A program made the position numbers and the translations under genes. A stretch of 34,922 nt of DNA, taken from assembly GCA_005893295.1 (NCBI GenBank), contig VBOY01000039.1:19541-54462 (forward strand), written 5' to 3'. The notes beneath the pieces were generated by a model. That model saw only the letters and a program-made list of their open reading frames with translations, searched no databases and was not told the DNA's origin. Positions 2,306-31,814 of this stretch are shown here, in pieces. The DNA comes from Candidatus Eiseniibacteriota bacterium (GTDB lineage: Bacteria > Eisenbacteria > RBG-16-71-46). Numbering within the stretch: position 1 is the stretch's first letter; each line of letters opens with the position of its first letter.

Positions 2306-3261
2306 CGTAGGGAAGGAGAGGACGGGGCCGAAAGGCTGTCCGCGCGCGCCGGAGGTTTCGAGGCGGCTTCGCTCGCCGGGGGTTCCAGGTAGGCGTTAAG
2401 CGCCCGCTCGATCTCGTAGAGCGGCACGTTCGTGGCCGTGGAGTCGGCGGCCAAGCGTCGCCAGGGCGATTTCTTGCCGTAGGCGAAGGCCCCGAACACC
2501 ACCACTGGAGTGCCGGGCTTAAGGATACGTCGCGGGTCGTTGCGATCGAGCTTCCACTCGTCGACCCAATCGTAGAGCCAGATCGCGTCGTCCTCGAGCA
2601 GCCGTATGCACGAGTGGCTCGCCGGGTAGCCCGGCAGGTCGAACAGATGGAACGAGATGCCGACGAAGTTCTCCAGGTTGACGTACCATTTGAGCAGCCA
2701 TTCTTCGTTGAACGTGCTCGTGCGCTCCTTGTCCTTCCAGTTCGTGTGATAGAGGCCCTCGGGCGTGGGGAGCGACTCTCGGCCGGTGCTCGTCGGTCCC
2801 CAGCGGGCGAGCGAGCCGCTCTGGTATGCCGCAAACGCCTGGACACGACGTGACACGAGCAGCAGCTTCGCCAGGTCTCGGGCGCCCGGCACCTGGCGTG
2901 GGAAGGGCGACAAGGCGAGCAGGTCCGCGGTGGTGTCGGTCGGCACCATGAGGCTGTCGCCGGTGCGCACGTGAAGCGAGTCGCGCCGGTTCACCTTGAG
3001 CACGAGTAGAAAGCGCGCCGGGCCGAGCTCGCGGGCGAGGGTACGGAGCGTCTTGTCGTCCGGGATCTTGACCGTCCGATAGCCCGGCTGGTGCACCACC
3101 GTGTCGGGGGGAACCGGTGACGGGACCGGAGCGGGATGCGCGAGGGCTGCGAGCGAGTCACGCGTGGCCTCGCCGGTGGGACGAGGACCCGCGCACCCCG
3201 CGAGGCCGATGACCATCGCCGCCGCGGCGAGGGCCGCTCGGCTGCGCGGCGGGGGGCTCAT
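2302..3261 (-). CDS. Lipoprotein with a LysM-like domain and an L,D-transpeptidase (YkuD) catalytic domain
   Basis: Lipobox 'VIGLAGCAG' after an internal Met (the ORF extends upstream to 3528 but lacks signal-peptide logic). The YkuD catalytic motif 'PASHSCIRL' is present, and 'YRTVKIP...GDSLMVP' resembles LysM. Confidence 0.7.
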   Translation of the reverse strand: MSPPPRSRAALAAAAMVIGLAGCAGPRPTGEATRDSLAALAHPAPVPSPVPPDTVVHQPGYRTVKIPDDKTLRTLARELGPARFLLVLKVNRRDSLHVRTGDSLMVPTDTTADLLALSPFPRQVPGARDLAKLLLVSRRVQAFAAYQSGSLARWGPTSTGRESLPTPEGLYHTNWKDKERTSTFNEEWLLKWYVNLENFVGISFHLFDLPGYPASHSCIRLLEDDAIWLYDWVDEWKLDRNDPRRILKPGTPVVVFGAFAYGKKSPWRRLAADSTATNVPLYEIERALNAYLEPPASEAASKPPARADSLSAPSSPSLR

Positions 3262-8876: not shown

Positions 8877-9797
8877 ATGACGTCCAGGAAGCACTCGATC
8901 GAGGTGATCGGGGTGCCGATCGACCTCGGCGCCGGGCGCCGCGGCGTGGACATGGGCCCCTCGGCGATCCGGATCGCCGACCTCGAGCAGCGACTCGAGC
9001 AGCTCGGCCATCGCGTCACCGACTTCGGCGATCTCGACGTGATGATCCCGGAGACCCAGCAGGTCGGCCAAGGCAAGCTCCGCTACAAGGAGCCCATCCT
9101 CAAGACATGCGACGAGCTGCGCAAAGAGGTCGAGCGCAGCCTCGAGCAAGGAAGCATGCCGCTCGTTCTGGGCGGCGATCACAGCCTGGCGATCGGCTCG
9201 ATCGCAGGCTCGACCAACCACTACGCCGCCCGGGGCGAATCGTTGGGCCTCATCTGGTTCGACGCCCACGGCGACGCGAACACGGCCGAGACCACCCCTT
9301 CGGGCAACATCCACGGCATGGCTCTCGCGATCAGCCTCGGGCTCGGCGACCCGGACCTGGTGAAGCTCGGCGATCGAGCGCCCAAGGTGCAGCCGCGCAA
9401 CACGGTGCTGATCGGAGTGCGTGACCTCGACCCGGGCGAGCGCGACATCCTGAAGAAGAGCGGCGCGATCGTGTACACCATGCGCGACCTGGACGAGCGC
9501 GGCATGCGCGACGTCGTGGACGAGGCGATCCGGATCGCCAGCGACGGGACGGCCGCGATCCACTTGTCCTTCGACCTCGACGTCGTGGACCCGGAGGATG
9601 CCCCGGGGACGGGTACGCCGGTGTGGGGCGGCATCACGTACCGCGAGGCTCATCTGGCGATGGAGATGATCAACGACCGTGCCCCGATTGCGGCCATCGA
9701 TTTGGTCGAGGTGAACCCGGTGCTCGACACGCAGAACATGACCGGAATCCTGGCCGCCGAGCTGGCGCAAAGCGTGCTAGGCAAACGGATTCTATAG
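8877..9797 (+). CDS. rocF: Arginase / ureohydrolase family
   Basis: Motifs 'GGDHS', 'DAHGD' and 'SFDLDVVDP' are the Mn-binding signatures of the arginase family. Confidence 0.85.
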   Translation: MTSRKHSIEVIGVPIDLGAGRRGVDMGPSAIRIADLEQRLEQLGHRVTDFGDLDVMIPETQQVGQGKLRYKEPILKTCDELRKEVERSLEQGSMPLVLGGDHSLAIGSIAGSTNHYAARGESLGLIWFDAHGDANTAETTPSGNIHGMALAISLGLGDPDLVKLGDRAPKVQPRNTVLIGVRDLDPGERDILKKSGAIVYTMRDLDERGMRDVVDEAIRIASDGTAAIHLSFDLDVVDPEDAPGTGTPVWGGITYREAHLAMEMINDRAPIAAIDLVEVNPVLDTQNMTGILAAELAQSVLGKRIL

Positions 9798-9804
9798 ACC
9801 TCGG

Positions 9805-11493
9805 CTACGCCTGCGTCCGGAGCGCGAGCGAGCCGATCGCCCGCCTGAGCTTGGCGTGCGCGTCGAAACGGCGCACGAATTCCGACTCGCGCCGCCCGCC
9901 CTTGGCGCGCACCACGCGCACCAGGGCCCGCCGCTCGGCCGCGCTCCAGCGCGCCAACCCCGGTAGGATCAGGATCACGGGCGTCCAACGCGCCCACGCG
10001 AGACGCTCGCCGGTCGTCCATCCGGCATGCGATCGCACTCCGAGCAGCGCCCGAGCCTCGTCGCCGCATGCCCGGCCCGCGCCCTCTCGGTCCGAGCCAA
10101 AGCGCCGCGACAGCGCCTTCATCGTGGCGAATCCGACCTGGGCGAGCGGCAGCTCGCCGATCACGTCGGGCCGCGGTCGAGCGAGGGACAGGTAGACGCA
10201 GGCACGGGCGAGCCGGCGCAGCGTGGCAGCGCTCGAGCGGTGCTCGGGATCGCGCCTCACCCGGCGAAGCTCGCGACGCATGAGCCGCGCCGCGGCTCGG
10301 TCGCGCGGACGAAACCCCACCTTGTGGTAGAACCACCATGCCCCCGACTCGATGGCCTCGTCGTTTCCTTCGCCGAGCTGGTAGGGGACCACCGCGAAGG
10401 TGTCGCAGCCGAACAGGTGGCGAGTCATCGCCATCACCCACCCGTAGATCGGGGCGGCCTCGGCGCCGCGGAACGTCTCGAACACGTTGTAAGCGATCTC
10501 GGCCGAACCGAACAAGGATGCGGTGAGCACGTAGCCGATGGGAACGCCGTTCTTCAGCGTCAGGTAGCCGTAGACCGATTCCAGCAGCAGGCGTCGTTCG
10601 GGGAGTGATCCGATGCAGGCGAACTCGAGGCCCTCGCCGCAATCGATCATTCGCACGTCGCGCGGATCGCCGTACGAGAAGACATCCAAGTCGCGACTGC
10701 GGGTGATCATCGCTTCGCGCGCCCGGTCGATCAGACGCTCCCCTTCGCGGCGCGAAACCGCGCGCACCGAGCGCGGGCGGCGCAACAGATCCTCGGGGAT
10801 CTCGGGACGCGCCCTCGACAGGGGCCCACGCTGCCAGACGATCCGCTGGCCTTTGAGCTTGGCGCGGCTGCGCGACGGCGTCGTCCCGGCGGGCTGGAGG
10901 CGAATCGGTACGTCCAGCTCGTCCCACAGCGCCTCGCGCACGAACGGGTCCACGCCGAGCGTAGCGAAGCGCCGGATCAAGAACGCGGCGTCGCTCTCAT
11001 GAGGGCCCTTCATGCGCTCGATCCACTCGCGCGTGGGCGCTTCGTACTCGTCGAGCGCCGGGCTCACGGCGAAGTGGGCGAGCAGCGGTAGCAAGGGCTC
11101 GAGGCGGTCTCGATTCTCGAAGTCGCGCCAGTCGATGGTCAGCCGGTGCGGCCAGCGCTCAGCCAGCCACTGCGCGGTGGGCGCGAAGAAGCGAAAGCGA
11201 ATCTCGGTGCCGGCGATGCCACTGTCGGCGAGCCGGCGGGCGTGGTGGCGGAGGTCGCGACGACGATCGAACGAGCCGAGCAGCCGGTCGACCTCGGCGA
11301 GGATCGCTTCGTTCTCGGGATACGCCTGCCAGAAGCACGCGAGCTCGTGGAGCCTGAGCACCTCGGAGGTTCGCGGCACGCGCGCCCGCTGCAGCCGACG
11401 GAGCAGCTCGAGCTTGCGACCCGCGGCATCGCCGCCGAAGGTGGTCTTGAGTCGCTCGGCCGCACGCAGCACGGATGAGGGGGTGATGAGCAC
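9805..11493 (-). CDS. Large hypothetical cytoplasmic protein (562 aa), possible GNAT-like acyltransferase fold in the C-terminal half
   Basis: Clean long ORF with coding-like composition. 'ESGAWWFYHKVGF' is reminiscent of GNAT motif B. No confident family assignment. Confidence 0.45.
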   Translation of the reverse strand: MLITPSSVLRAAERLKTTFGGDAAGRKLELLRRLQRARVPRTSEVLRLHELACFWQAYPENEAILAEVDRLLGSFDRRRDLRHHARRLADSGIAGTEIRFRFFAPTAQWLAERWPHRLTIDWRDFENRDRLEPLLPLLAHFAVSPALDEYEAPTREWIERMKGPHESDAAFLIRRFATLGVDPFVREALWDELDVPIRLQPAGTTPSRSRAKLKGQRIVWQRGPLSRARPEIPEDLLRRPRSVRAVSRREGERLIDRAREAMITRSRDLDVFSYGDPRDVRMIDCGEGLEFACIGSLPERRLLLESVYGYLTLKNGVPIGYVLTASLFGSAEIAYNVFETFRGAEAAPIYGWVMAMTRHLFGCDTFAVVPYQLGEGNDEAIESGAWWFYHKVGFRPRDRAAARLMRRELRRVRRDPEHRSSAATLRRLARACVYLSLARPRPDVIGELPLAQVGFATMKALSRRFGSDREGAGRACGDEARALLGVRSHAGWTTGERLAWARWTPVILILPGLARWSAAERRALVRVVRAKGGRRESEFVRRFDAHAKLRRAIGSLALRTQA

Positions 11494-11564
11494 GAGGGCC
11501 GCAGCGTATCGAAGGGGGCTGGGGCGCGCCAGGTCGGGCGCGGGGGCTCGCCCGACTGCCGCCG

Positions 11565-11948
11565 TCAGCTGCCCGCCGGCGCGTGATTCTCGGTCCGCAC
11601 CACGACGCGATGGGCGACCGAATGGCCACCCTCGTCGCGGTAGTAGACCGTGACGCGGGCGTCCTTTGCCACGTCACCGTTCACCGTCATGGTGTCGTGC
11701 TTCGTGAACACCATCGAGCGCGGGTTGCGCCCGCGCCGTTCGACCGTGAGCGTGTGCTGGTCCTGCGCGGCCACGTAGCCGGTGAACTGCCGCATGGTGT
11801 TTCTGGCCTTGGCACTCTTGGCCGCGGGGGCCGCGGTCTTGGGGGCTGCCGACGCCGGATTGCCATGGAAGGCGAACCCAGCCGCGGCGGCGAGCGCGAG
11901 CGCCATGCCGAGCGCGACGTACTTCCGACCCTGTCTCATCCTCCTCAC
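11565..11948 (-). CDS. Small secreted hypothetical protein
   Basis: Signal peptide 'YVALGMALALAAAAGFA'. The mature part is about 90 aa and has no known motif. Confidence 0.4.
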   Translation of the reverse strand: MRRMRQGRKYVALGMALALAAAAGFAFHGNPASAAPKTAAPAAKSAKARNTMRQFTGYVAAQDQHTLTVERRGRNPRSMVFTKHDTMTVNGDVAKDARVTVYYRDEGGHSVAHRVVVRTENHAPAGS

Positions 11949-12161: not shown

Positions 12162-12836
12162 TCAGGCGCGCGACTGCGCGATTCGGCGCACGCCGAGCTT
12201 CTTCATGCGCGAGTGCAGCGTCGTGGGCTTGAGGCCGAGGATCGCGGCGGCTCCGCGGGGGCCGCTGACGCGGCCCCGTGTGCGCTCGAGCGTCTCCTCG
12301 ATGGCGCGACGTTGGACCTCGGCGAGCGTGCGTTCCATCGGGACGCTCGGCATCGGCGGCGACGTCGTGCGGCTCGGTGTGAGCACGAGGGCCAGCAGCC
12401 GTGCCGCAGCCGCCAGCGAGCGCAGATCCGTGTCGCCGAGGCTACGCCGCGCGAACAGTGCCAGCACTCCCACCAGCGATTCCTCGTGGACCATCGGCAG
12501 GGCCGCAAAGCTCGCGACCGAGTGGGTCGTGAGCCAGGCAGGATCGGCGAGACCGAGGGTTGGAAGCTCCCTCGACGCAACGATCGGCTGACGTTCGAGC
12601 GCCACGCGCCCCACCTCGCGCGCGCCTATCGGGAAGCGTCGAAACGGTCCGTCGAGTCGCGCGGTGGTTCCGATGCTCAGCTCGAGGTGGAGACACCGGG
12701 TTTGGTCGGGGCACTCGAGCCTCATCGGGCAGACGCTGCACAGGTCGCCAGGCCCAAGGAGCCAGATCCGCAGAAGTGCCGGATCGAATGGCAAAGCCAG
12801 ATTCTCGATAAGGTCCGCGACCCTTCCGTCGATCAC
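12162..12836 (-). CDS. GAF-domain plus Fis-type HTH regulator lacking an AAA+ module; contains a Cys4 cluster
   Basis: The C-terminal 'AAAILGLKPTTLHSRMKKLGV' is the NtrC/Fis HTH_8. A GAF-like segment ('ALPMVHEESLVGVLALF') is present. The motif 'CSVCPMRLECPDQTRC' (C-x2-C-x5-C-x6-C) lies in the N-terminal part. Confidence 0.55.
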   Translation of the reverse strand: MIDGRVADLIENLALPFDPALLRIWLLGPGDLCSVCPMRLECPDQTRCLHLELSIGTTARLDGPFRRFPIGAREVGRVALERQPIVASRELPTLGLADPAWLTTHSVASFAALPMVHEESLVGVLALFARRSLGDTDLRSLAAAARLLALVLTPSRTTSPPMPSVPMERTLAEVQRRAIEETLERTRGRVSGPRGAAAILGLKPTTLHSRMKKLGVRRIAQSRA

Positions 12837-12911
12837 GAGCTCATCATGGCGAAATAGAGTTACAGATCAAGCGATATTTCGCCGATTACGATATATCGCC
12901 ATATGCTCCGG

Positions 12912-22734: not shown

Positions 22735-25700
22735 ATGCTCGAGCGATTCGCGGGCCGATACCTCCTGCTGAGGCGCCTGGGACAGGGCGGGATGGGTGAG
22801 GTCTACCTGGCCCGCGATCTGACGACCGGGGCCGAGTGCGCTCTCAAGCGCCTTGCGGCGCGGAACGTGAGCCCCGATGCCGCGCGCCGCGAATTCGAGA
22901 TCCTGTCGCGCATCCGGCATCCCGCGATCGTCGAGGTGCACGAGCTCGGCCTCGCCGCCGATGGAACCCCCTACATGACGATGGAGTACGTGCCGGGCGT
23001 GGCGGCCGACCGCGCGCTGGCGCGCGGCGACTGGGCGACGCTGCTATTCGTGGCCGCGCGCGTGGCGCAGGGCCTCGAAGCGCTCCACGGGGCAGGCGTG
23101 CTGCACGGCGACCTCAAGCCCTGGAACTTGCTCGTCGTGCCCGGGCCCTCGCCCGACGCGCCGGTGGCCGACGTGAAGCTCGTCGATTTCGGCCTTGCGG
23201 CGCTGCGCGACGCCGCCGGCGAGGGCCGCCGGGGCACGCCGGGCTTCGCCGCACCCGAAACGGTGCGCGGTGAAACGCCTTCGATCGCCTCGGACCTCTA
23301 CGGCTTCGGCGCGACGCTCTACGCGCTGGCCGCGCGCCGTTCGCCCTACGAGGGGGACTCTGCGGTCGAGGTGCTGCGCCGCCAGCAAGCCGGGCCGCCT
23401 TCCGCACTTCCGCTCGAGGAGGTCGGCACGCCCGCTCCGCTCGTCCAGTTCGTGCTGCGGTTGATGGCGCCCGACGCCTCCGAGCGACCGGCGGACGCCC
23501 GCGAAGCGCGGCGCGAGCTCGAGCGCCTGCATCCGGTCTCGCGCCGCCCGCTCGCCGAGCGTCTCGAGACCGCGGTCACGGTGGGACGCGAGCGGGAGCT
23601 GGCGCGCCTCGAGCGATCGCTCGAGCGTGACACGGCGAGGCGGATCATCGTGCTGTCGGGTCCGGCGGGCCTGGGCAAGTCCACGCTGCTGACCGAGCTC
23701 GCGGTGCGCGGGTCGCTCGCGGGCCGGCACGTGCTGCACGCTTCGTGCGCCGCGCATGAGCCGGCGGACATCGCACGCCGGCTGCTCAAGCGTCTCGAGA
23801 CCGAGGCGGGTGAGGCCGTGGCGCCCTCGGCTGCCACCCGTGCCTTGTTCGAGTCGCGGAGCGCCTTCACGACCCTCGACCTCGAGGAGATGGTGGCGGA
23901 CGCGACGCGCTGGGCGGTCGAGGTCGCCGAGCGCGCCGGCCCGCTGCGTGTCCTGCTCGACGACGTGGAGCGACTGGATCCATTTTCGCGCTCGCTCATC
24001 CGCCGCCTGGTGGTCCGAAGGGCCCCGATCCACTGGGTGTGGGCGCGTCGCGACATCATGGGAGCATCCGACGAGCGCATGATGCTCGAGGCCGGGCTCG
24101 CGGAACACGTGGAGCTCTCGCCGCTCGCCGAGGACGGAATTGCGCGACTCGCCGCGGTGCGGCTCGGTGAGCCGGCTCCCGAGGCCCTGGCGTCGTTTCT
24201 GTGGAGTCGAAGCGGCGGGCATCCCGGGTTCGCGGTCGAGCTGCTCCGCGCGGCGGCCGCCGATGGCGTGCTGGTCGAGCAGGATCAGGGCCTGGTCGTG
24301 GCCGCGGACCGGCTCACCTCGCTAAAGATCCCCCGAGATTTCCAGGCTTCGCTGCTCGAACGGGTGGCGGCCTTGCCGGCCGAGGCGCGCGAGGCCGCCG
24401 CCGCGCTCGCGGCGTGGGGCCGGCCGCTCGCGGCCGCGGACCTCAAGGCCCTTGCGCCGCGAGCCGACGAGCGCACGCGGGCGCGATTGATCGCCGCCGG
24501 GCTGGCGGCGCGCGGCGAGGGTGGGACCCTGACGCTGAGACCTCCGGCGCTCGCAGAGGAGCTGCTGCGAATGCTCGCGCCCGACGATCGCCGGGCGCTC
24601 CACCGCGCGGCCCTCGAACGGCCGGGGCTCGACCACGCCGAGCGCTTCCGGCACCTGCGGGAGGCGGGCGACACCTCAGGGGCGCTGGCGGCGGCCGAGT
24701 CGAGCTACGCCGAGCGGCCGAGCTACGAGCTGGCGGCCGCGGCGGCGGAGCTGGCGGAACCGAGCGCCCGCGATCGCGCCGGGCTGTGGCACGACCGCGC
24801 GGCGCGCGAGCTGGCCGCATTGGGCCGCTACGCCGCGGCGATTCCACATCTCGAACGCGCGCTGGCGTTGGAGTCCGACAGTCCCGCGCGACCCGAGCGC
24901 TGGGTACGCCTTTCGGGCGCGTGCCTCAGGGCCGGCCGACTCGACGACACCGAGTCCACCATCGCCCGCGCGCTCGCGGAGGATCCGCCGGCGGCGTTTC
25001 GGGCCAAGCTTCTCTGCAATCAAGCGGCACGCCGCCTCGCGCTCGGCGATCGCGACGCGGCCCGCACGCGAGCCGAGGAATCGCTGGCGCTCGCCGAGGG
25101 CGCGGCGGATTCCGAAGCCATCGGCGCGTCCGCCGAGCTGCTCGCCTACTTGCTGCTCGCCGAGCAGCGCACGGAGGAGGCCGAAGCGATGGCGAGGAGA
25201 GCCGGCGATGCGTACCGGGAAGGGCGTCACGTTCACGGCTCGATCCGCGCCCTCGGGATCAAGGGAGCGATCGCGCGGGCCCGCGGCCGGCTCGCCGAAG
25301 CGGAGCGACATTACCGCGACGGTCTGGCCGAAGCGCGGGCGCGCGCGCATCGCTTGGCCGAAGAAGAGTTGCTGCTGAATCTGGCCGTGGTCCTGGCCGA
25401 ATCGGGCCAGTGGACCGCGTTGCGTGAAACGTTCGAGAAGGCTTCACGCATCGCCCTCGAAGATGGTCGGGCCGGGGGCGCCGCCGTGGCCGTCGCCGGG
25501 CTGTCACACGCCGACGGCCTCACCGGCCGGCCGCGAGCGGCGCGCCGCCAAGGACGCGCCGCAGTGAGGCTCACGCGGAGCCACGTGCCACGGCTCGAGG
25601 CCTACGCCTGGCGCGCCCTCGCCCAGGCCGACCGCATCGCCGGGCGGCTCGATCGCGCGGAACGGGCGGCGCGGCGCGCGGTGACGCTCGCGGCCCGTCA

Positions 25701-27786
25701 GGTGCCGGAGGAGCTGGACTGGAGCCGCATCGAGCTCGGCCGCGCGCTGGCCGCGAGCGCGCGCTGGAACGAGGCGGGCGAGCTGTGGGACGCGGCACGC
25801 GATCGGGCGTCCGACCCGAACGCCGTGGCGACCGCGGTGCTCGAGGTTCTGGCAGGCATGGCCGCACTGCGGCGCGGGCGGCCCGACCGAGCCGCCGCGC
25901 GGCTCAAGACCGCAGAGGAATGGCTCGGCACGCACCCGGCTCCGTACGTCGAGGCGCTCGCCCGGCGACTCGAGGCCGAGCTGGCGTTGAAGGACGGCCG
26001 GCTCGCGGAGGGCCGCGAAACAGGCCACGGTGCCCTCGAGAAGCTGGCGGCTCTTCCGGCGCCGGTCGAACGCGCGCACGCCGCCCTCGAGCTGGCCCGC
26101 CTCGCTCCGGCGAGCCCCGAGCTGGCGCCCGCGGTGGTGTCGTGGCTCGACCTGGCGATCGGGACCTTCGAGCGCGTGGGCGACCGCAGCAGCCGCGAAC
26201 GCGCCCTGGCGCTGCTGGTCGAGTGGCTGCGCCGCCATCCGGTGCGACCTCCGGCTCCCGCGGGCGGCCGCGACCTGATCGAGCGCGTGAGCTGGCTGCT
26301 CCACTCGCTCTCGGATCCGCGCGAGCTCACCCAGCGCGCGATGCGCATGGCGGTGGAGCAGCTCGACGCGGAGCGGGGGGTGCTGCTGCTCATCGACTCC
26401 GAGAGCGGCCTGCTCGCGCCGATCGCCGAGCACGGCGCGGTGGACGCCGCGACCCGCCGTGAGGCGGTGGGCTACAGCCGCCGCGTGGCCCAGCGGGTGA
26501 CCGAAAGCGGAGACAGCCTGCTCATCACCGACGCCCCCGCGGACCCGCGCGTGCTCTCGGAGAGCGTCGTCGACATGCAGTTGCGCTCGATCCTGTGCGT
26601 GCCGATGTTCCTCGGGGGTCACGTGGTGGGCGCGGTCTACCTCGACGACTCGCGGCGCGCCCACACGTTCGGCGACGCCGACCGGGGCCTGCTCGAGGGG
26701 TTCGCGCACCTGATGGCGGTGGCGATCGAGAACAGTCGCGGGCACGACGAAGTGCGGCAGGTGAAGGAGCTGCTGGAGGGCGAGAACCTGTCGCTGCGCC
26801 AGGAAGTAGGGGTGCGCTTTCGCCCGAACAACGTGGTCGGATCGAGCAGCCAGATGCAGCGCGTGCTGGCCATGGTGGAGCACGCTGCCCGCACGCAGAC
26901 CACGGTGCTGATCACCGGGGAGAACGGCACCGGCAAGGAGCTGATCGCCCGCACGCTCCACCACGGCGGCAAGCGACGCTTGCGGCCGTTCGTGGCCGTC
27001 AATTGCGGCGCGATCCCGGAATCCCTGATCGAGAGCGAGCTGTTCGGCATCCTCCCCAACGTGGCCACCGGCGTGCGCGGCCGGCCGGGGCGTTTCGTGC
27101 AGGCCGATGGCGGGACGCTGTTCCTCGATGAGATCGGCGAGATGCCGCTCAAACAGCAGGTGACGCTGCTGTCGGCGATCGCGAACCGCGAGATCACTCC
27201 GGTGGGAGGCGGGAAGCCGATTCCGGTGGACGTTCGGATCATCGCCGCCACGAACCAGAACCTGCGTCGCCAGGTCGAGCAGGGAGCGTTCCGCGAAGAC
27301 CTCTACTATCGGCTCAACGTGATCGAGATCGAGGTGCCGCCGCTGCGCGAGCGAAAGGCGGACATCCCCGGGCTGGCGAAGCACTTTCTGGCCCAGTTCG
27401 CCGCGCAGCAGGAGCGCGACGTCCCCACCATGACGCCGGAGTTCCTTGCCGCCTTGATGCAGAGCGACTGGCCGGGCAACGTGCGCGAGCTACAGAACTA
27501 CATCGAGCGAATCCTGGCGATGACGATGGGCTCGGTGCTCATGCCGGATCCGCCGCCGCGCGACCTTCAGGAGCGCGGGGCGAGGAAGCTGCCGAGGGGG
27601 CGGCGCCTGGTGGATAGCGTGGAGGACCTCGAACGCCGGCTGGTGGGGGAGGCCCTGGAACGGGCCCGTGGCAACCAGAGCCACGCCGCAAAGGAGCTGG
27701 GGCTGACCGAGCAGTCCATGCGCTATCGCATACGGAAATATGGGCTTCACTCTGCTCGCGGAAACCGGCGAACTCGCCGAAGTTAG
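22735..27786 (+). CDS. 1683-aa fusion protein with six modules: non-RD Ser/Thr kinase, STAND/MalT-like NTPase, TPR-like helical repeats, GAF, sigma54-interaction-type AAA+ domain, Fis HTH
   Basis: Kinase: 'LGQGGMGEVY', 'ALKRL', 'HGDLKPWN', 'DFG', 'APE'. STAND Walker A 'GPAGLGKST' and Walker B 'VLLDDVERLD'. GAF region 'LCVPMFLGGHVVGAVYLDD'. AAA+ module: 'ITGENGTGKE', 'GGTLFLDEIGEMP', 'RIIAATNQNL', 'FREDLYYRLNVIEIEVPPLRERKADI'. HTH: 'HAAKELGLTEQSMRYRIRKYGL'. Confidence 0.85.
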   Translation: MLERFAGRYLLLRRLGQGGMGEVYLARDLTTGAECALKRLAARNVSPDAARREFEILSRIRHPAIVEVHELGLAADGTPYMTMEYVPGVAADRALARGDWATLLFVAARVAQGLEALHGAGVLHGDLKPWNLLVVPGPSPDAPVADVKLVDFGLAALRDAAGEGRRGTPGFAAPETVRGETPSIASDLYGFGATLYALAARRSPYEGDSAVEVLRRQQAGPPSALPLEEVGTPAPLVQFVLRLMAPDASERPADAREARRELERLHPVSRRPLAERLETAVTVGRERELARLERSLERDTARRIIVLSGPAGLGKSTLLTELAVRGSLAGRHVLHASCAAHEPADIARRLLKRLETEAGEAVAPSAATRALFESRSAFTTLDLEEMVADATRWAVEVAERAGPLRVLLDDVERLDPFSRSLIRRLVVRRAPIHWVWARRDIMGASDERMMLEAGLAEHVELSPLAEDGIARLAAVRLGEPAPEALASFLWSRSGGHPGFAVELLRAAAADGVLVEQDQGLVVAADRLTSLKIPRDFQASLLERVAALPAEAREAAAALAAWGRPLAAADLKALAPRADERTRARLIAAGLAARGEGGTLTLRPPALAEELLRMLAPDDRRALHRAALERPGLDHAERFRHLREAGDTSGALAAAESSYAERPSYELAAAAAELAEPSARDRAGLWHDRAARELAALGRYAAAIPHLERALALESDSPARPERWVRLSGACLRAGRLDDTESTIARALAEDPPAAFRAKLLCNQAARRLALGDRDAARTRAEESLALAEGAADSEAIGASAELLAYLLLAEQRTEEAEAMARRAGDAYREGRHVHGSIRALGIKGAIARARGRLAEAERHYRDGLAEARARAHRLAEEELLLNLAVVLAESGQWTALRETFEKASRIALEDGRAGGAAVAVAGLSHADGLTGRPRAARRQGRAAVRLTRSHVPRLEAYAWRALAQADRIAGRLDRAERAARRAVTLAARQVPEELDWSRIELGRALAASARWNEAGELWDAARDRASDPNAVATAVLEVLAGMAALRRGRPDRAAARLKTAEEWLGTHPAPYVEALARRLEAELALKDGRLAEGRETGHGALEKLAALPAPVERAHAALELARLAPASPELAPAVVSWLDLAIGTFERVGDRSSRERALALLVEWLRRHPVRPPAPAGGRDLIERVSWLLHSLSDPRELTQRAMRMAVEQLDAERGVLLLIDSESGLLAPIAEHGAVDAATRREAVGYSRRVAQRVTESGDSLLITDAPADPRVLSESVVDMQLRSILCVPMFLGGHVVGAVYLDDSRRAHTFGDADRGLLEGFAHLMAVAIENSRGHDEVRQVKELLEGENLSLRQEVGVRFRPNNVVGSSSQMQRVLAMVEHAARTQTTVLITGENGTGKELIARTLHHGGKRRLRPFVAVNCGAIPESLIESELFGILPNVATGVRGRPGRFVQADGGTLFLDEIGEMPLKQQVTLLSAIANREITPVGGGKPIPVDVRIIAATNQNLRRQVEQGAFREDLYYRLNVIEIEVPPLRERKADIPGLAKHFLAQFAAQQERDVPTMTPEFLAALMQSDWPGNVRELQNYIERILAMTMGSVLMPDPPPRDLQERGARKLPRGRRLVDSVEDLERRLVGEALERARGNQSHAAKELGLTEQSMRYRIRKYGLHSARGNRRTRRS

Positions 27787-27959
27787 CGATTTCACCCGTT
27801 CGCGTTGCGGCGCATTGCGTTATTGATTATTTCGTCGCTATTTGCGCTGTTTTCTGCGAGCCAAGGCCGTTTCCGATGCGCCTCCACTAGCGCGAGAACA
27901 CCCTCTTAACATCATGGTTCACATGTAGTAACTGGCATTCCGCACGAGACATCCCAGAG

Positions 27960-27975
27960 CGGCACGGGTTTCGCG
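27960..27975 (+). promoter_or_regulatory. Candidate sigma54 (-24/-12) promoter, cGGCACG-N4-TCGC, upstream of the small secreted-protein gene
   Basis: GG and GC are spaced exactly as in TGGCACG-N4-TTGC. The -12 element is TCGC, which is non-canonical. It lies about 35 nt upstream of the ATG, in an unusually AT-rich intergenic region. Confidence 0.25.
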
Positions 27976-28008
27976 GTTGGCCGATTGGGTCCAATCAAGG
28001 AGAAACCC

Positions 28009-28290
28009 ATGCAAGGCTCGTACAAGGTCGCTTTCAGCGCTGTGATTCTGGCCACGGCCGTCTTGCTCGTACCCCGTTTGGCCACCGCCCAGATCTGCCC
28101 AAATCCGCCGGTGGGGGTTGGCCAACTCCAAGTGGCGCAAGTGCCCGACGATTGGGCCAGGGCGTCGTGGGTCCGGCGGATCGATTTCAGGTTTTTTTCG
28201 ATGCACGGCTGGGGACGCGGGGCCATTACCCGACTCGGCACCCGCTCGGCCAGCGCCGTCTTGCGTGAGCGGCGCGGACTGACGCGCTGA
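28009..28290 (+). CDS. Small secreted basic protein (93 aa) of unknown function
   Basis: Strong RBS AAGGAG with 6-nt spacing. Signal peptide 'VAFSAVILATAVLLVPRLATAQ'. The mature part is about 65 aa and includes 'ICPNPPVGVG'. Confidence 0.5.
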   Translation: MQGSYKVAFSAVILATAVLLVPRLATAQICPNPPVGVGQLQVAQVPDDWARASWVRRIDFRFFSMHGWGRGAITRLGTRSASAVLRERRGLTR

Positions 28291-28298
28291 ATCCTGCA

Positions 28299-28829
28299 GT
28301 GGGATTTCAGCACGGTCTGCCCCAGCGAGGGGAGCGGGGGGTCGACGGAACGCCCCCCGCGAGACTCGTTCGTCTCCATCGCCATAGCTTGATGAACCTG
28401 CTCGTCACCGGCGGCGTCGCCGACGAGCGACGTCGCGTGGCGCTCGCCTTCCATCACGAAAGCCCACAGCGCCTGGGGCCATTCGTGTCGGTGTGCTGCG
28501 GGCGCGAAGAGGCCCGACTCGCCGCGGGCCTCGAATCGTGGGCGTCGGACAACGAAGCATCCTCGGCCGACCCGTTGCGCGCGGCGCAAGGAGGCACCCT
28601 GTTCCTCGACGAGGTCGGGTGCCTGTCGAGCGACACCCAGCGACTGCTGCTGATCTTCGTTCGCCATCTCGCCGGCGCGGCGGACGATGACGGGCCGCCC
28701 GTCAGGCTGGCGGCCGGCCACGAAGAGGATCTGGACGCGGCGGCCGCCGAGGGAGCGTTCTCTCCACCGCTTCTCGACTATCTCGACAAGATTCACGTCG
28801 AGCTGGGTTCGGTCCGCGGCGCAGCCTGA
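28299..28829 (+). CDS. Stand-alone degenerate sigma54-activator-type AAA+ domain protein ('pseudo-bEBP') with no Walker A lysine, no GAFTGA loop and no HTH
   Basis: 'LLVTGGVADERRRVALAFH' stands where 'LITGESGTGKELVARAIH' would be. The Walker B region 'GGTLFLDEVGCLS' is retained, and 'RLAAGHEEDLDAAAAEGAFSPPLLDYLDKIHVEL' stands where 'RIIAATN..L...V..G.FREDLYYRLNV..I.L' would be. The start codon is uncertain (GTG at 28299 or ATG at 28392). Confidence 0.45.
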   Translation: MGFQHGLPQRGERGVDGTPPARLVRLHRHSLMNLLVTGGVADERRRVALAFHHESPQRLGPFVSVCCGREEARLAAGLESWASDNEASSADPLRAAQGGTLFLDEVGCLSSDTQRLLLIFVRHLAGAADDDGPPVRLAAGHEEDLDAAAAEGAFSPPLLDYLDKIHVELGSVRGAA

Positions 28830-28838
28830 GTCGACCTC

Positions 28839-29393
28839 TCAGCGGACCGCCTTTCGCGCCAGCGCCGGGGCTGCGACGATCTCGTAGAGGGCGAGCGCCA
28901 GACGAGCGCTCTCGCCGATCGCGCGCGCGGTGAGCGTGGCACCGGAAAGAGCGGGGATCGCGCGCCCCGGCCACATCCGGTCGTCGAGCCGCCGGTGGGC
29001 GAAGAGCGACAGCCACCGCGGCTCGGGCGCATAATCGGGCGGCTCGTGGAACGCCAGCACGTCGATCCGCGATACCGTGGTATCGGGTGCAATCGCCACC
29101 ATGAGGACTGCCGGCATGGTGCGCACCACGCGCGCATCGAAGAACGCCGTCCCGGTCAGGCTGTCGCCTCGCCAGGCGAAGTACGCGATCACCAGCCGCG
29201 AGGGAAGCTTCACGCGCGCCCGCTTCTCCACCGTGGCCGCCTCCGCGGCGCCGAGGGCGAACGAGCGGCGCCCGATGCGCGCGCCGGGAAACGCCTGCGC
29301 GAGCGCCTCCTCGCGCGTCATGAAGGCAGCGGCCCGCGCTTCGAGCGGCCAGGACAGCGCGGCCAGGACGAGAGCCAACGCGACTCGAGACAC
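28839..29393 (-). CDS. Secreted FMN_bind-domain protein (predicted substrate for ApbE flavinylation)
   Basis: Signal peptide present. The 'IPALSGATLTARAI' motif matches the NqrC/RnfG FMN_bind 'SGAT(L/I)TS' site, in which the Thr is flavinylated. Confidence 0.55.
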   Translation of the reverse strand: MSRVALALVLAALSWPLEARAAAFMTREEALAQAFPGARIGRRSFALGAAEAATVEKRARVKLPSRLVIAYFAWRGDSLTGTAFFDARVVRTMPAVLMVAIAPDTTVSRIDVLAFHEPPDYAPEPRWLSLFAHRRLDDRMWPGRAIPALSGATLTARAIGESARLALALYEIVAAPALARKAVR

Positions 29394-29396
29394 AGC

Positions 29397-30737
29397 CTAG
29401 AACAGATACCCGAGCGCCACGTTCCACTGATCGGTCGCGGTGTCGGCTTCGTCGTGGCGCCACTGGCGGTCCGTCTTGAGCACCACTTGAGGATGGGGTT
29501 TGAAGGCGACGCCGGCGGTGATCACCGAACGCCGGTTCGCTGGATCCTCGGCGCCACCCGGGACGTCCTCTTGCGTGTCGTACCGCTCGAGCCTCGCGTA
29601 CGGAGCGAGCCCCCATTCGGCGGCGGGGGCTAAGAGGGGCGCGACGTCGTACGCACCCTCGACGTAGCCGCCGAAGAACGATTTGCCGAGTCGGTCCGAG
29701 CCCGTCAAGCCGAGCGCGTCCGAGAGGTCGGAGACGTCGGTGAGCGCGCCGTGCGCGTAGAGCCCTGACAACGTCAACCCCCGCCACTGGAGGCGGGAGT
29801 GGAGGTCGAACAAGGTGAGCCGCGGGGTCACCTCGGCTCCCGCGGGCTGAAAGTCCTGCCAGCTGTCGCCGGTGAATGCTGCGGCACCGGCCGTGAGGCC
29901 GGGAAAGCCGACGTAGTCCAGGCGCGCGGCCACCGCCCCGCGGGTAGCGAGACTCTGCGAACCGTTCTGGCGCCCCTCGCGAATCCCCTGTGAAGCCGAG
30001 AAGCCACGCGCGTTCAGCCCCTCGGTCAGGAAGAGACGGTATTCGAGCCCTCGCCCGCGGCCGTGGATCCCGATGCCGTTTGCGCTCCACGTCGTGGGAA
30101 TGATGACTTGCTCGACGTCGGGGCGCCGGGCGCCGAGGAAGATCGGCGGCTCGTGAAGCTCGTTCACGAGCCCGAGCGGAAGGAGCATCATGCCGGCTCG
30201 AACGCCCACCCCCGGACGCAGCAGCCAGTCGATGTAGGCGAACTCGAGCGAGACCTCCCCCGAGAGCTCCGCCGAACCTTGGACCTCGCCGGTCAAGGGA
30301 TCCGCCCGGCCCTCGACCAAGGCTTCGTCGCGCACCCCGCCGTGCTCCAGCTCGATCTCGGAGTTGAACAACAGCCGGTCGGTGAACTTGTAGCCCAGGT
30401 ACACCACCTGCCGCAGATGATCGAGGCGGTCGAGCTTACCCGAAGGGACGTCGTCTTCGCGGGAGCGATCGAAGTTCTCGTAGAGCGCCTCGCCGTAGCC
30501 TCCGATCGAGACCCCGGGCCCGGCTCCGTACACCTTGGAGGCTGCGGGCGCGAGCCCGAAGCGGCCGGCGGTCCGCGCGCGCGCGGTCGTGTCCGCCACG
30601 GCGCCCAATTGGATGTTCTCGATCTCCGCGGTGAGCGCCTCCACTTTGCGCTCCAATTCGCCGATCCGCTCGTCGTCGGCGAATGCCGGCCCGGCGAAGC
30701 CCAAGACCAACAGCAGGGAAACAAGCGCCATCTTCAC
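29397..30737 (-). CDS. Outer-membrane porin-like beta-barrel with an N-terminal coiled-coil
   Basis: Signal peptide 'ALVSLLLVLGFAGPAFA'. Coiled-coil 'ERIGELERKVEALTAEIENIQ'. Alternating beta pattern ending in 'NVALGYLF', with a C-terminal Phe. Confidence 0.55.
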   Translation of the reverse strand: MKMALVSLLLVLGFAGPAFADDERIGELERKVEALTAEIENIQLGAVADTTARARTAGRFGLAPAASKVYGAGPGVSIGGYGEALYENFDRSREDDVPSGKLDRLDHLRQVVYLGYKFTDRLLFNSEIELEHGGVRDEALVEGRADPLTGEVQGSAELSGEVSLEFAYIDWLLRPGVGVRAGMMLLPLGLVNELHEPPIFLGARRPDVEQVIIPTTWSANGIGIHGRGRGLEYRLFLTEGLNARGFSASQGIREGRQNGSQSLATRGAVAARLDYVGFPGLTAGAAAFTGDSWQDFQPAGAEVTPRLTLFDLHSRLQWRGLTLSGLYAHGALTDVSDLSDALGLTGSDRLGKSFFGGYVEGAYDVAPLLAPAAEWGLAPYARLERYDTQEDVPGGAEDPANRRSVITAGVAFKPHPQVVLKTDRQWRHDEADTATDQWNVALGYLF

Positions 30738-30758
30738 GATGCATCCTTTCCTTCGAGG

Positions 30759-31814
30759 TCAGTTCATCCAGCGGATCGCGACTCCGGGCTCGGCGATCGC
30801 GGAGAGATTCCATTTCCAGGCGCGCAGAAGACCATGATCGGGCTCGATCCACAACACGCCGATCTCCTGGTGGCGCCGCGCCAGGGCCAAGGCACGCTCG
30901 CGGCCCATCACCAGCAGCGCCGTCGACAGGCCATCGGCGCGCGTGGCCGAGGGAGCGACCACGGTGACGGTTGCTTGGGTGTCGAGCGGCCGGCCGCTCG
31001 AAGGGTCGAGGATGTGCCCCAAGTGCTTGCCCCGGACCGTGACCCCGCGCACTCCCTGGCCGGAGGTCGAGACCGCTCCTTGGGCGATCGCAATCCGTAC
31101 GGCCGGCCGCAGGCGGTCGTTGGGATGAGCCACCGCGATCGGCCACGGCCGGCCCTTGGGCGAGAGAGCGAGCACCTCGCCTCCCAGGTTGAGCAGCGCA
31201 CGCTCGATGCCCTCGGCCGCCAGCAGTCGTGCGGCCCGATCGAGGGCGAACCCCTTGCCGATCCCGCCCAAGTCCACCCCCATTCCAGGCGTGGCGAGCC
31301 GCGCCATGTGGCGCGTGGGGTCGAGCGTGAGGCGGGACCAGGCCACGCGGGAGCGCGCCACGGCGATCTCCCGCGGCGAGGGCACGCGGCCCTTGCCGCG
31401 CAGGTCCCAGATGCGGTCGAGCGGCTCCACCGTCGGATCGAACGCGCCCGAGGTGGCGCGCGCGATCGCGAGCGCCGAGTCGAGAACAGCGTAGAGATCC
31501 TGAGAACAACGGAAGGCACTGCCGGCCGCCCGATTGAGGCGTGACAGCTCGCTGTCCTTGCGCCACGAGCTCATCACGTTTTCGAGCCGAGCGATCTCGT
31601 CGAGCGAGTGGGCGAGGACCCGGGCCGCCTGGGTCGAGTCGGGGGCTTCGGCCGTGGCGGTCAAGATCGTGCCCATCAGATAGCGCGCCCGCTCGACGCC
31701 AACGGGTCGGGCGGCCTCGCGCACCGCGCACCCGCCCGCAAGCAGGGAAGCGAGGGCCCACAGGGCGCGGATGCCGCCGCGTCGCCCCTGCTCAGCGGGG
31801 CGGCTTTGGGACAT
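30759..31814 (-). CDS. apbE: ApbE-family FAD:protein FMN transferase (lipoprotein)
   Basis: Lipobox 'LLAGGCA'. ApbE motifs 'YLMGT' and 'DLGGIGKGFALD' are present. Confidence 0.85.
   Translation of the reverse strand: MSQSRPAEQGRRGGIRALWALASLLAGGCAVREAARPVGVERARYLMGTILTATAEAPDSTQAARVLAHSLDEIARLENVMSSWRKDSELSRLNRAAGSAFRCSQDLYAVLDSALAIARATSGAFDPTVEPLDRIWDLRGKGRVPSPREIAVARSRVAWSRLTLDPTRHMARLATPGMGVDLGGIGKGFALDRAARLLAAEGIERALLNLGGEVLALSPKGRPWPIAVAHPNDRLRPAVRIAIAQGAVSTSGQGVRGVTVRGKHLGHILDPSSGRPLDTQATVTVVAPSATRADGLSTALLVMGRERALALARRHQEIGVLWIEPDHGLLRAWKWNLSAIAEPGVAIRWMN

Follow-up and report, generated by a model that had tools for sequence, protein, structure and literature searches.

In a stretch of Candidatus Eiseniibacteriota DNA (contig VBOY01000039.1 of assembly GCA_005893295.1; 34,922 nt, about 70% GC with a mean of 0.697, hereafter the window), the low-GC island that follows the gene for a giant regulatory protein probably controls a bicistronic operon that depends on sigma54, is activated from an enhancer, and serves as a local target of that adjacent regulator. 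The island (27787-28008, 222 bases, 54.5% GC) holds the regulatory elements; it is followed on the forward strand by a small open reading frame (ORF) for a predicted exported protein and by a second gene, here called trEBP, for a degenerate protein made of an AAA+ domain only. The comparison took in 32 loci in full (the window and 31 related loci, mostly from metagenome-assembled genomes [MAGs] of Candidatus Eisenbacteria) and five to six more in part. Full-length relatives of the regulator, at 43-72% identity, are found in about 35 MAGs, nearly all labelled Candidatus Eisenbacteria, and in the 32 loci the next conserved gene lies 590-720 nt past the regulator stop, except in L015 (857 nt) and in two loci with an inserted gene. 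Taken as a whole, this is a sigma54/enhancer-type module with unusual components, for which neither the curated families nor the papers searched gave a match: regulator, small protein, and trEBP all stay below the curated NCBIfam cut-offs, and a literature search found no publication on gene regulation in Candidatus Eisenbacteria.

The island was first singled out by a sequence-only reading for its low GC content, its apparent -24/-12 element with exact GG/GC spacing, and a strong ribosome binding site ahead of a small signal-peptide gene, and each of these can be located precisely. Only 0.22% of 220-nt windows across the 34.9 kb are as low in GC as the island (0.545, against 69.7% for the window). 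The promoter-like element, CGGCACGGGTTTCGCG (27960-27975, forward strand), consists of C27960, GGCACG (27961-27966), a GGTT spacer (27967-27970), and TCGC (27971-27974), which sets the GG (27961-62) and GC (27973-74) ten nucleotides apart as in GG-N10-GC; it departs from the consensus TGGCACG-N4-TTGCW at two positions, with C for T at -26 and again at -14. A relaxed form of the consensus, YGGCAYGNNNNTSGC, matches the window four times where 0.64 matches are expected, a count that none of 100 shuffles reached. The same reading had proposed scoring the region with a sigma54 position weight matrix (PWM); a matrix built from the other loci only, with the window and its closest relative (L014) left out, ranks position 27960 first of 69,814 positions on both strands of the window.

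Conservation across related loci is the decisive comparison, and it carries the evidence beyond chance. The pattern YGGCACG-N4-T[C/G]GCC is present in 32 of 32 loci, some 155-245 nt past the stop codon of the orthologous regulator gene; GG, CA, T, and G are invariant across these sites, 31 of which also keep the final C, with flanking bases essentially unconserved. In six further loci the same PWM finds the element 164-181 nt past the regulator stop, followed in five of them by a signal-peptide ORF. In all loci an ATG lies on the same strand 33-64 nt past the promoter 16-mer, and among 13 near-identical soil contigs (98-99.9% identity) the promoter and the enhancer copy described below carry not a single nucleotide polymorphism. 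To judge from this comparison, then, the element is a phylogenetic footprint, and sequence and conservation alike place the control region in the known -24/-12 class, with the promoter itself presumably dependent on sigma54. From the known geometry of sigma54 promoters, transcription is predicted to start near 27986, about 12 nt past the C of the -12 element; no sigma70-like promoter was found in 27500-28900.

The other relaxed -24/-12 matches in the window lie at 2422-2437 (+), 9314-9328 (+), and 11896-11910 (-). With the PWM, the first scores 14.2, just over the weakest site of the family, and the second 12.8; both are apparently within ORFs. The third precedes a gene on its own strand (9805-11673, -) by about 220 nt.

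The family also shares an 18-bp palindrome, TTCGCC-N6-GGCGAA, at a fixed place, -114 to -121 from the first base of the promoter: about 19 of 32 loci match it there at 10 or more of 12 positions, three of them at 12 of 12, and L018 has 11 of 12 at -127, against a background in which 2.5% of 170-nt windows hold a score of at least 10 anywhere. In a few loci another copy stands some 70 nt farther upstream. At the equivalent position in the window (27843-27860, -117) stands TGCGCTGTTTTCTGCGAG, a degenerate copy and candidate enhancer (upstream activating sequence) for the helix-turn-helix (HTH) domain of the regulator. Cross-locus conservation points to this palindrome at about -115 as the candidate enhancer, and not to the TTGCG direct repeats or the quasi-palindrome CGCATTGCG that the sequence-only reading had put forward as activator sites. 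TTGCG does occur three times (27805, 27815, and 27842), yet some 5-mer occurs at least three times in 74% of island shuffles, so that this copy number is at chance level and was set aside as evidence for binding sites; the third copy falls within the degenerate palindrome by coincidence. The quasi-palindrome exists as described (27811-27819, +) but is common only to the window and L014, which makes it clade-specific; a simple scan flagged it, together with the T-rich tail that follows, as weakly terminator-like (27809-27821) with respect to the regulator gene, one of two such sites found with 0.8 expected.

Between candidate enhancer and promoter lies an AT-rich zone (27900-27935) with a weak IHF-like core, TAACATCATGGTT (27907-27919), that agrees at seven of nine specified positions. 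Across loci the mean AT fraction is about 0.5 at -60 to -25 and about 0.3 farther upstream, and CAA-N4-TTR sequences that may be such cores occur there in many of them. Elsewhere in the window, a 224-aa protein with GAF and HTH_8 domains and no AAA+ domain is encoded at 12162-12836 (-); the second-lowest GC island of the window (12848-12911) lies upstream of its gene, and two sequences within that island, TTCGCCGATTAC and GATATATCGCC, are similar to the TTCGCC half of the promoter-linked palindrome.

The regulator (22735-27786, +; 1683 aa) is an assembly of modules in the order Ser/Thr kinase, STAND-type AAA_16 NTPase, TPR, GAF, sigma54-interaction AAA+, AAA lid, and Fis-type HTH, as given by Pfam matches to Pkinase, AAA_16, TPR, GAF, Sigma54_activat (PF00158, E 9e-63), AAA lid, and HTH_8 (E 3e-12). 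No clear transmembrane segment was found in it, the maximum hydropathy (1.77) lying within the GAF domain. Its AAA+ module has the Walker A sequence GENGTGKE and the Walker B sequence GGTLFLDE, with DE in place, and aligns with ZraR in the PDB at E 2e-71. Outside one loop, then, it is a canonical module of the bacterial enhancer-binding protein (bEBP) type.

That loop weighs against direct activation by the regulator. The defining GAFTGA of bEBPs is missing: where ZraR has it, the L1 loop of the regulator (ELFGILPNVATGV) reads NVATGV at the same length, and 31 of 32 loci show this variant in a pattern search. In PspF, F85 and T86 of GAFTGA contact region I of sigma54, and substitution at any position of the motif abolishes open-complex formation (PMC3467059). 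bEBP homologues that lack GAFTGA, such as V. cholerae VpsR and Caulobacter NtrC, act at sigma70 promoters (PMC6158489, PMC12421884). Two further points count against the sigma54 operon model: the copy of the palindrome in the window matches only 8 of 12 positions, a score that taken alone is not above background, and a search for an RpoN-box motif in 734 kb of fetched DNA found none, a result that is uninformative. Because of the NVATGV loop direct activation is not a safe conclusion, and any engagement of sigma54 by this regulator would, to judge from the loop, be non-standard. Sigma54 itself is probably present in the phylum, since bEBPs with canonical GAFTGA or GSFTGA are encoded elsewhere among the Eisenbacteria loci (L017, L032, and L034).

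These observations give the best-surviving alternative its footing: the sigma54 promoter would be genuine and the regulator not its ATP-dependent activator, another canonical bEBP of the kind present in the phylum opening the promoter in its place. The GAFTGA-less regulator could then be a repressor, an anti-activator, or a sigma54-independent factor at the palindrome, or it could act elsewhere. We regard this as unlikely, while giving it appreciable weight. The order of regulator, promoter, and ORF is strict in about 37 loci, and a palindrome at fixed distance is typical of a cis-acting bEBP site. The remainder of the AAA+ module is fully canonical, and the variant loop is itself conserved, with T-G and a hydrophobic V kept, which suggests a working loop and not a decayed one. 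VpsR and Caulobacter NtrC offer a likeness in their AAA+ bEBP fold with an altered sigma54-contact motif (PMC6158489, PMC12421884), but unlike these regulators of sigma70 promoters, the present one has a textbook -24/-12 element directly downstream and keeps both loop length and T-G. Direct action of the regulator on the adjacent operon stays the preferred account.

The first gene of that operon is the small ORF (28009-28290, +; 93 aa), preceded by the Shine-Dalgarno (SD) sequence AAGGAG (27997-28002) 6 nt ahead of an ATG at 28009, and not at 28010 as first placed. It would encode a signal peptide (residues 1-27, 28009-28089) with predicted cleavage at ATA|Q: one K/R in the first 10 residues, a run of 20 uncharged residues, and A-T-A ahead of Q28. 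The mature part is basic, as the sequence-only reading had it (66 aa, isoelectric point [pI] 11.9, 11 K+R against 4 D+E), and ends in a clade motif, AVLRERRGLTR. GC content by codon position fits the frame of this ORF; an antisense ORF (27912-28796, 294 aa) shares the third-position phase and was rejected, having neither domains nor homologues and overlapping trEBP, which is supported by homology.

The design of the small protein is kept far better than its sequence. Each locus has GGAG(G), then an ATG, then an ORF of 86-119 aa, despite identities of about 20%; in an alignment of 36 sequences only M1, A27, and Q28 are invariant. Throughout the family, the first 10 residues include one to three K/R, about 21 uncharged residues stand in a row, and Gln follows A-x-A; the mature parts are basic (medians of 77 aa, pI 11.5, and net charge +5), with no K/R in their first 15-20 residues and a P-x-G motif about 5-8 residues past the Gln. 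GC at third codon positions is 0.72-0.93 in each locus. The ratio of nonsynonymous to synonymous substitution rates (dN/dS) was below 1 in all 16 of the more similar pairs (0.13-0.95, mostly 0.3-0.8), which indicates weak purifying selection. Among population variants (L001-L003), a tight cluster of substitutions and compensating indels falls in the c-region of the signal peptide (28068-28094), giving LLVPRLATAQI or LLTPRAGSAQG with the frame and A-Q kept; the mature part differs by a single synonymous polymorphism.

By inspection, the features of a Sec/signal peptidase I substrate (charged n-region, hydrophobic h-region, A-x-A, no lipobox) are present in all loci, and the protein would be exported and cleaved. 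A lipoprotein was considered and rejected, as the lipobox is absent and no Cys is conserved. A second alternative is that the protein is not released and keeps its N-terminus as an uncleaved anchor, in the manner of the small envelope membrane proteins that act as partners in stress circuits. The h-region is long, with about 20 uncharged residues, and AlphaFold2 (AF2) models it as one long helix, in keeping with such an anchor. We nevertheless hold the anchor to be rather improbable: A-x-A followed by Q is invariant directly past the hydrophobic stretch in 36 of 36 aligned sequences, and the next 15-20 residues are free of K/R, as expected of exported proteins that are cleaved; there is also no lipobox. 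In its A-x-A|Q the protein also resembles substrates of the Bacteroidetes "Q-rule," under which signal peptidase I substrates have Gln at +1. Eisenbacteria are usually placed in the Fibrobacteres-Chlorobi-Bacteroidetes (FCB) group, so that an N-terminal pyroglutamate is plausible here; unlike the rule, a related locus (L026) encodes at least one other protein with predicted export in which A, not Q, follows A-S-A.

Searches with the small protein yielded few relatives. A word-indexed homology search returned only a cluster at 95%, and an exhaustive phmmer search added five small relatives at 36-65% identity that share the C-terminal AVLRERRGL[TMI]R, together with repeat-protein noise; a profile search gave 13 unnamed proteins, and there was no Pfam or NCBIfam match. 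The AF2 model (pLDDT 55) is reasonably confident only in the signal helix and too poor for a fold search. With neither a family match nor a confident fold, the earlier suggestion of a secreted signal or toxin-like peptide stays speculation.

The second gene, trEBP (28299-28829, +), encodes 176 aa from a GTG at 28299. Gene callers start it at an ATG at 28392 (145 aa), which is too far downstream, because the frame is open back to the stop of the small ORF in nearly all loci. The N-terminal peptide so restored, RG-x4-5-PPA-x-LLRLHRHSL, is conserved at the amino-acid level, its LHRHSL block varying only synonymously between loci, and relatives are called at 164-188 aa with the N-terminal extension. 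The protein matches Sigma54_activat (PF00158) at 39 bits against a cut-off of 20.2, over profile positions 24-167, which cover the alpha/beta subdomain only. Its PDB matches are FleQ, NtrC, and PspF, and the top Foldseek matches of its AF2 model (pLDDT 73) are bEBP AAA+ domains (FleQ, VpsR, PspF, and NtrC1; E 5e-8). Walker A (GxxxxGK[ST]) is found in none of the 32 loci and the DE of Walker B in only two, the window included; GAFTGA, lid, and HTH are all missing, the protein stopping after the alpha/beta subdomain. By these motifs trEBP is a pseudo-ATPase relative of bEBPs and not a functional bEBP. Its C-terminus reads ...RGAA in the window (28818-28829); 13 of 32 loci end in ...GAA and four more in ...GVA, which is reminiscent of Ala-Ala degradation signals, by analogy with which the protein may be unstable.

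The start of trEBP overlaps the stop of the small ORF (as ATGA, GTGA, or TTGA) in 15 of 30 loci and lies 5-13 nt past it in 11 more. Since the trEBP start sits at or near that stop, the two genes read as one translationally coupled operon, with the promoter serving both. The proposal that the small ORF is a dedicated output gene of the regulator is accordingly still the best reading, element and ORF being conserved behind the orthologous regulator, but the output is bicistronic and not a single gene.

Within trEBP codons 12-21, a G/C hairpin, GCGGGGGG-N11-CCCCCCGC (28334-28360, +), has a conserved stem and a variable loop across loci, and could, we infer, throttle trEBP translation. It was also considered as a genome-wide repetitive extragenic palindromic element or terminator; hairpins of this GGGG(G/A)G/CCCCC type are confined, in the loci examined, to this junction, inside the trEBP frame. 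The hairpin is single-copy elsewhere, but in L015 the junction of small ORF and trEBP has grown to 287 nt (L015:8801-9088) with about five tandem G-run/C-run units. Two loci (L026:11618-12764 and L046:9315-10442) have an extra gene of about 270-316 aa between small ORF and trEBP, that of L026 for a signal-peptide protein. In two others (L043:3049-4400 and L056:11249-12000) promoter and signal-peptide ORF are present and trEBP is not evident downstream; as these keep the small ORF, it seems tied to the regulator more tightly than trEBP is. Genes for an FMN_bind protein, a 446-aa protein without domain match, and an ApbE flavin transferase (28839-31814, -) are convergent with the operon; membership of the FMN_bind and ApbE genes in the module was rejected on that ground and on their absence beside it in other loci.

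The sigma54 operon model does leave one feature unaccounted for, and it counts against that model. Directly past the -12 element begins an inverted repeat, GGTTGGCC/GG-T-CCAATC (27975-27996, +), which ends at the SD; most loci have an equivalent, its sequence differing from locus to locus while complementarity stays. Cognate arms pair at -17.8 kcal/mol and non-cognate arms at -13.1 (p 2e-7; mean z -1.8), with the individual duplex values of the window and L014 invalid since their arms overlap. An RNA initiated at the sigma54 promoter would lack the 5' arm, because that arm lies upstream of the predicted start near 27986. One idea, that the repeat hides the SD only in read-through RNA, was dropped: predicted SD accessibility does not differ between long transcripts and those begun at the sigma54 promoter (0.28 and 0.26 on average, p 0.68). 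The repeat may insulate the operon from read-through by another route, or act on DNA melting.

A third alternative takes the repeat as its starting point. In it GGCACG-N4-TCGCC would be no promoter but part of an RNA leader or terminator-like element on a read-through transcript of the regulator gene, from which the small ORF would be expressed; a covarying repeat that begins right past the -12 GC, ends at the SD, and has its 5' arm upstream of the predicted start speaks for this. It is nonetheless very improbable. Invariance falls exactly on the positions of the sigma54 consensus, which lie outside the repeat, and nothing conserved pairs with the block; nowhere in the window does an Rfam family reach its gathering score (the only matches near 28293 have E of about 0.5), long and short transcripts do not differ in predicted SD accessibility, and the gene upstream encodes a sigma54-type activator. 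That promoter match and ORF are accidents of a GC-rich genome, in which spurious ORFs like the antisense one do arise and a small ORF without annotated family invites suspicion, has next to no probability and is already refuted by the positional conservation of every element across loci whose regulators are only 43-72% identical and by the first rank of the window site in the PWM scan.

Taken as a sigma54-dependent operon under its neighboring regulator, the arrangement would work as follows. The regulator would integrate signals through its kinase, STAND, TPR, and GAF modules, and an oligomer of it would use the Fis-type HTH to bind the inverted repeat that lies about 130 nt ahead of the transcription start (27843-27860; TTCGCC-N6-GGCGAA in the family). 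With the AT-rich DNA between enhancer and promoter looping, its AAA+ ring would open the closed complex of sigma54-RNA polymerase at CGGCACG-N4-TCGC (27960-27974), with transcription starting near 27986. A short leader and strong SD would then give the 93-aa precursor, to be exported by Sec and cut after A-T-A into a 66-aa basic protein with N-terminal Gln. Ribosomes that end the small ORF would re-initiate at the nearby or overlapping start of trEBP, whose product most likely docks on the AAA+ ring of the regulator and so would feed back as a poison subunit or co-subunit.

Several known systems offer parallels. A GG-N10-GC core, an inverted repeat about 100-130 nt upstream, and an AT-rich zone between them are shared with promoters of the NtrC/glnAp2 and NifA/nifH type, as is an activator gene with AAA+ Sigma54_activat and Fis-type HTH domains. 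Unlike classical sigma54 promoters, this family has T[C/G]GCC throughout as its -12 element and not TTGCW; E. coli glnAp2 also has TCGC. Unlike classical activators, the regulator carries kinase, STAND, and TPR modules fused into one 1683-aa chain, and its L1 loop reads NVATGV. The PspF/PspA circuit is similar in logic only, in that a bEBP gene adjoins a sigma54-type target operon, which there as here has a predicted binder of the bEBP AAA+ domain and a small envelope-directed protein, and in which feedback would, in the present case, be expected. Pfam and NCBIfam give no PspA, PspB, or PspC homology here, however; trEBP matches only bEBP models, and the modulator would be a degenerate AAA+ protein.

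A second bEBP-like AAA+ protein beside the main one, with which it could co-assemble, recalls HrpR/HrpS, FleQ/FleT, VnfA1/VnfA3, and RedR1/RedR2, and hetero-oligomers of bEBP paralogues are documented for HrpR/HrpS, FleQ/FleT, and VnfA1/A3 (PMC9542535). To our knowledge, the known hetero-oligomer partners keep their ATPase and sigma54-contact motifs; trEBP lacks Walker A, GAFTGA, lid, and HTH, seldom retains the catalytic Glu, and is encoded in the target operon itself.

Candidatus Eisenbacteria have, as far as we know, no cultured member. The complete module also appears in MAGs labelled Acidiferrales (L019), Saccharimonadaceae (L038), and Udaeobacter (L058), which could reflect mis-binning or lateral transfer. 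What the locus offers is a conserved and compact test case, with enhancer, -24/-12 promoter, two small genes, and regulator, that could be rebuilt in a heterologous host. For the sigma54 field it raises the question of whether an activator with an NVATGV loop can still remodel sigma54-RNA polymerase, and with it that of the effect of a catalytically dead, lid-less AAA+ paralogue on the activator ring.

For the organisms themselves, the small protein keeps its position, its export signal, and its tight control while its sequence changes fast, a combination which suggests that it acts at the cell surface or in interactions with other organisms. A bolder and more doubtful proposal, offered tentatively, is that a phylum-wide subfamily of giant bEBPs with an xVATGV loop drives a canonical -24/-12 promoter, while a pseudo-ATPase paralogue, whose synthesis is translationally tied to that of a fast-evolving exported peptide, joins or caps the ring. 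If true, sigma54 would here be engaged, or the ring regulated, in a new way, and one self-contained circuit would tie envelope export to control of the activator.

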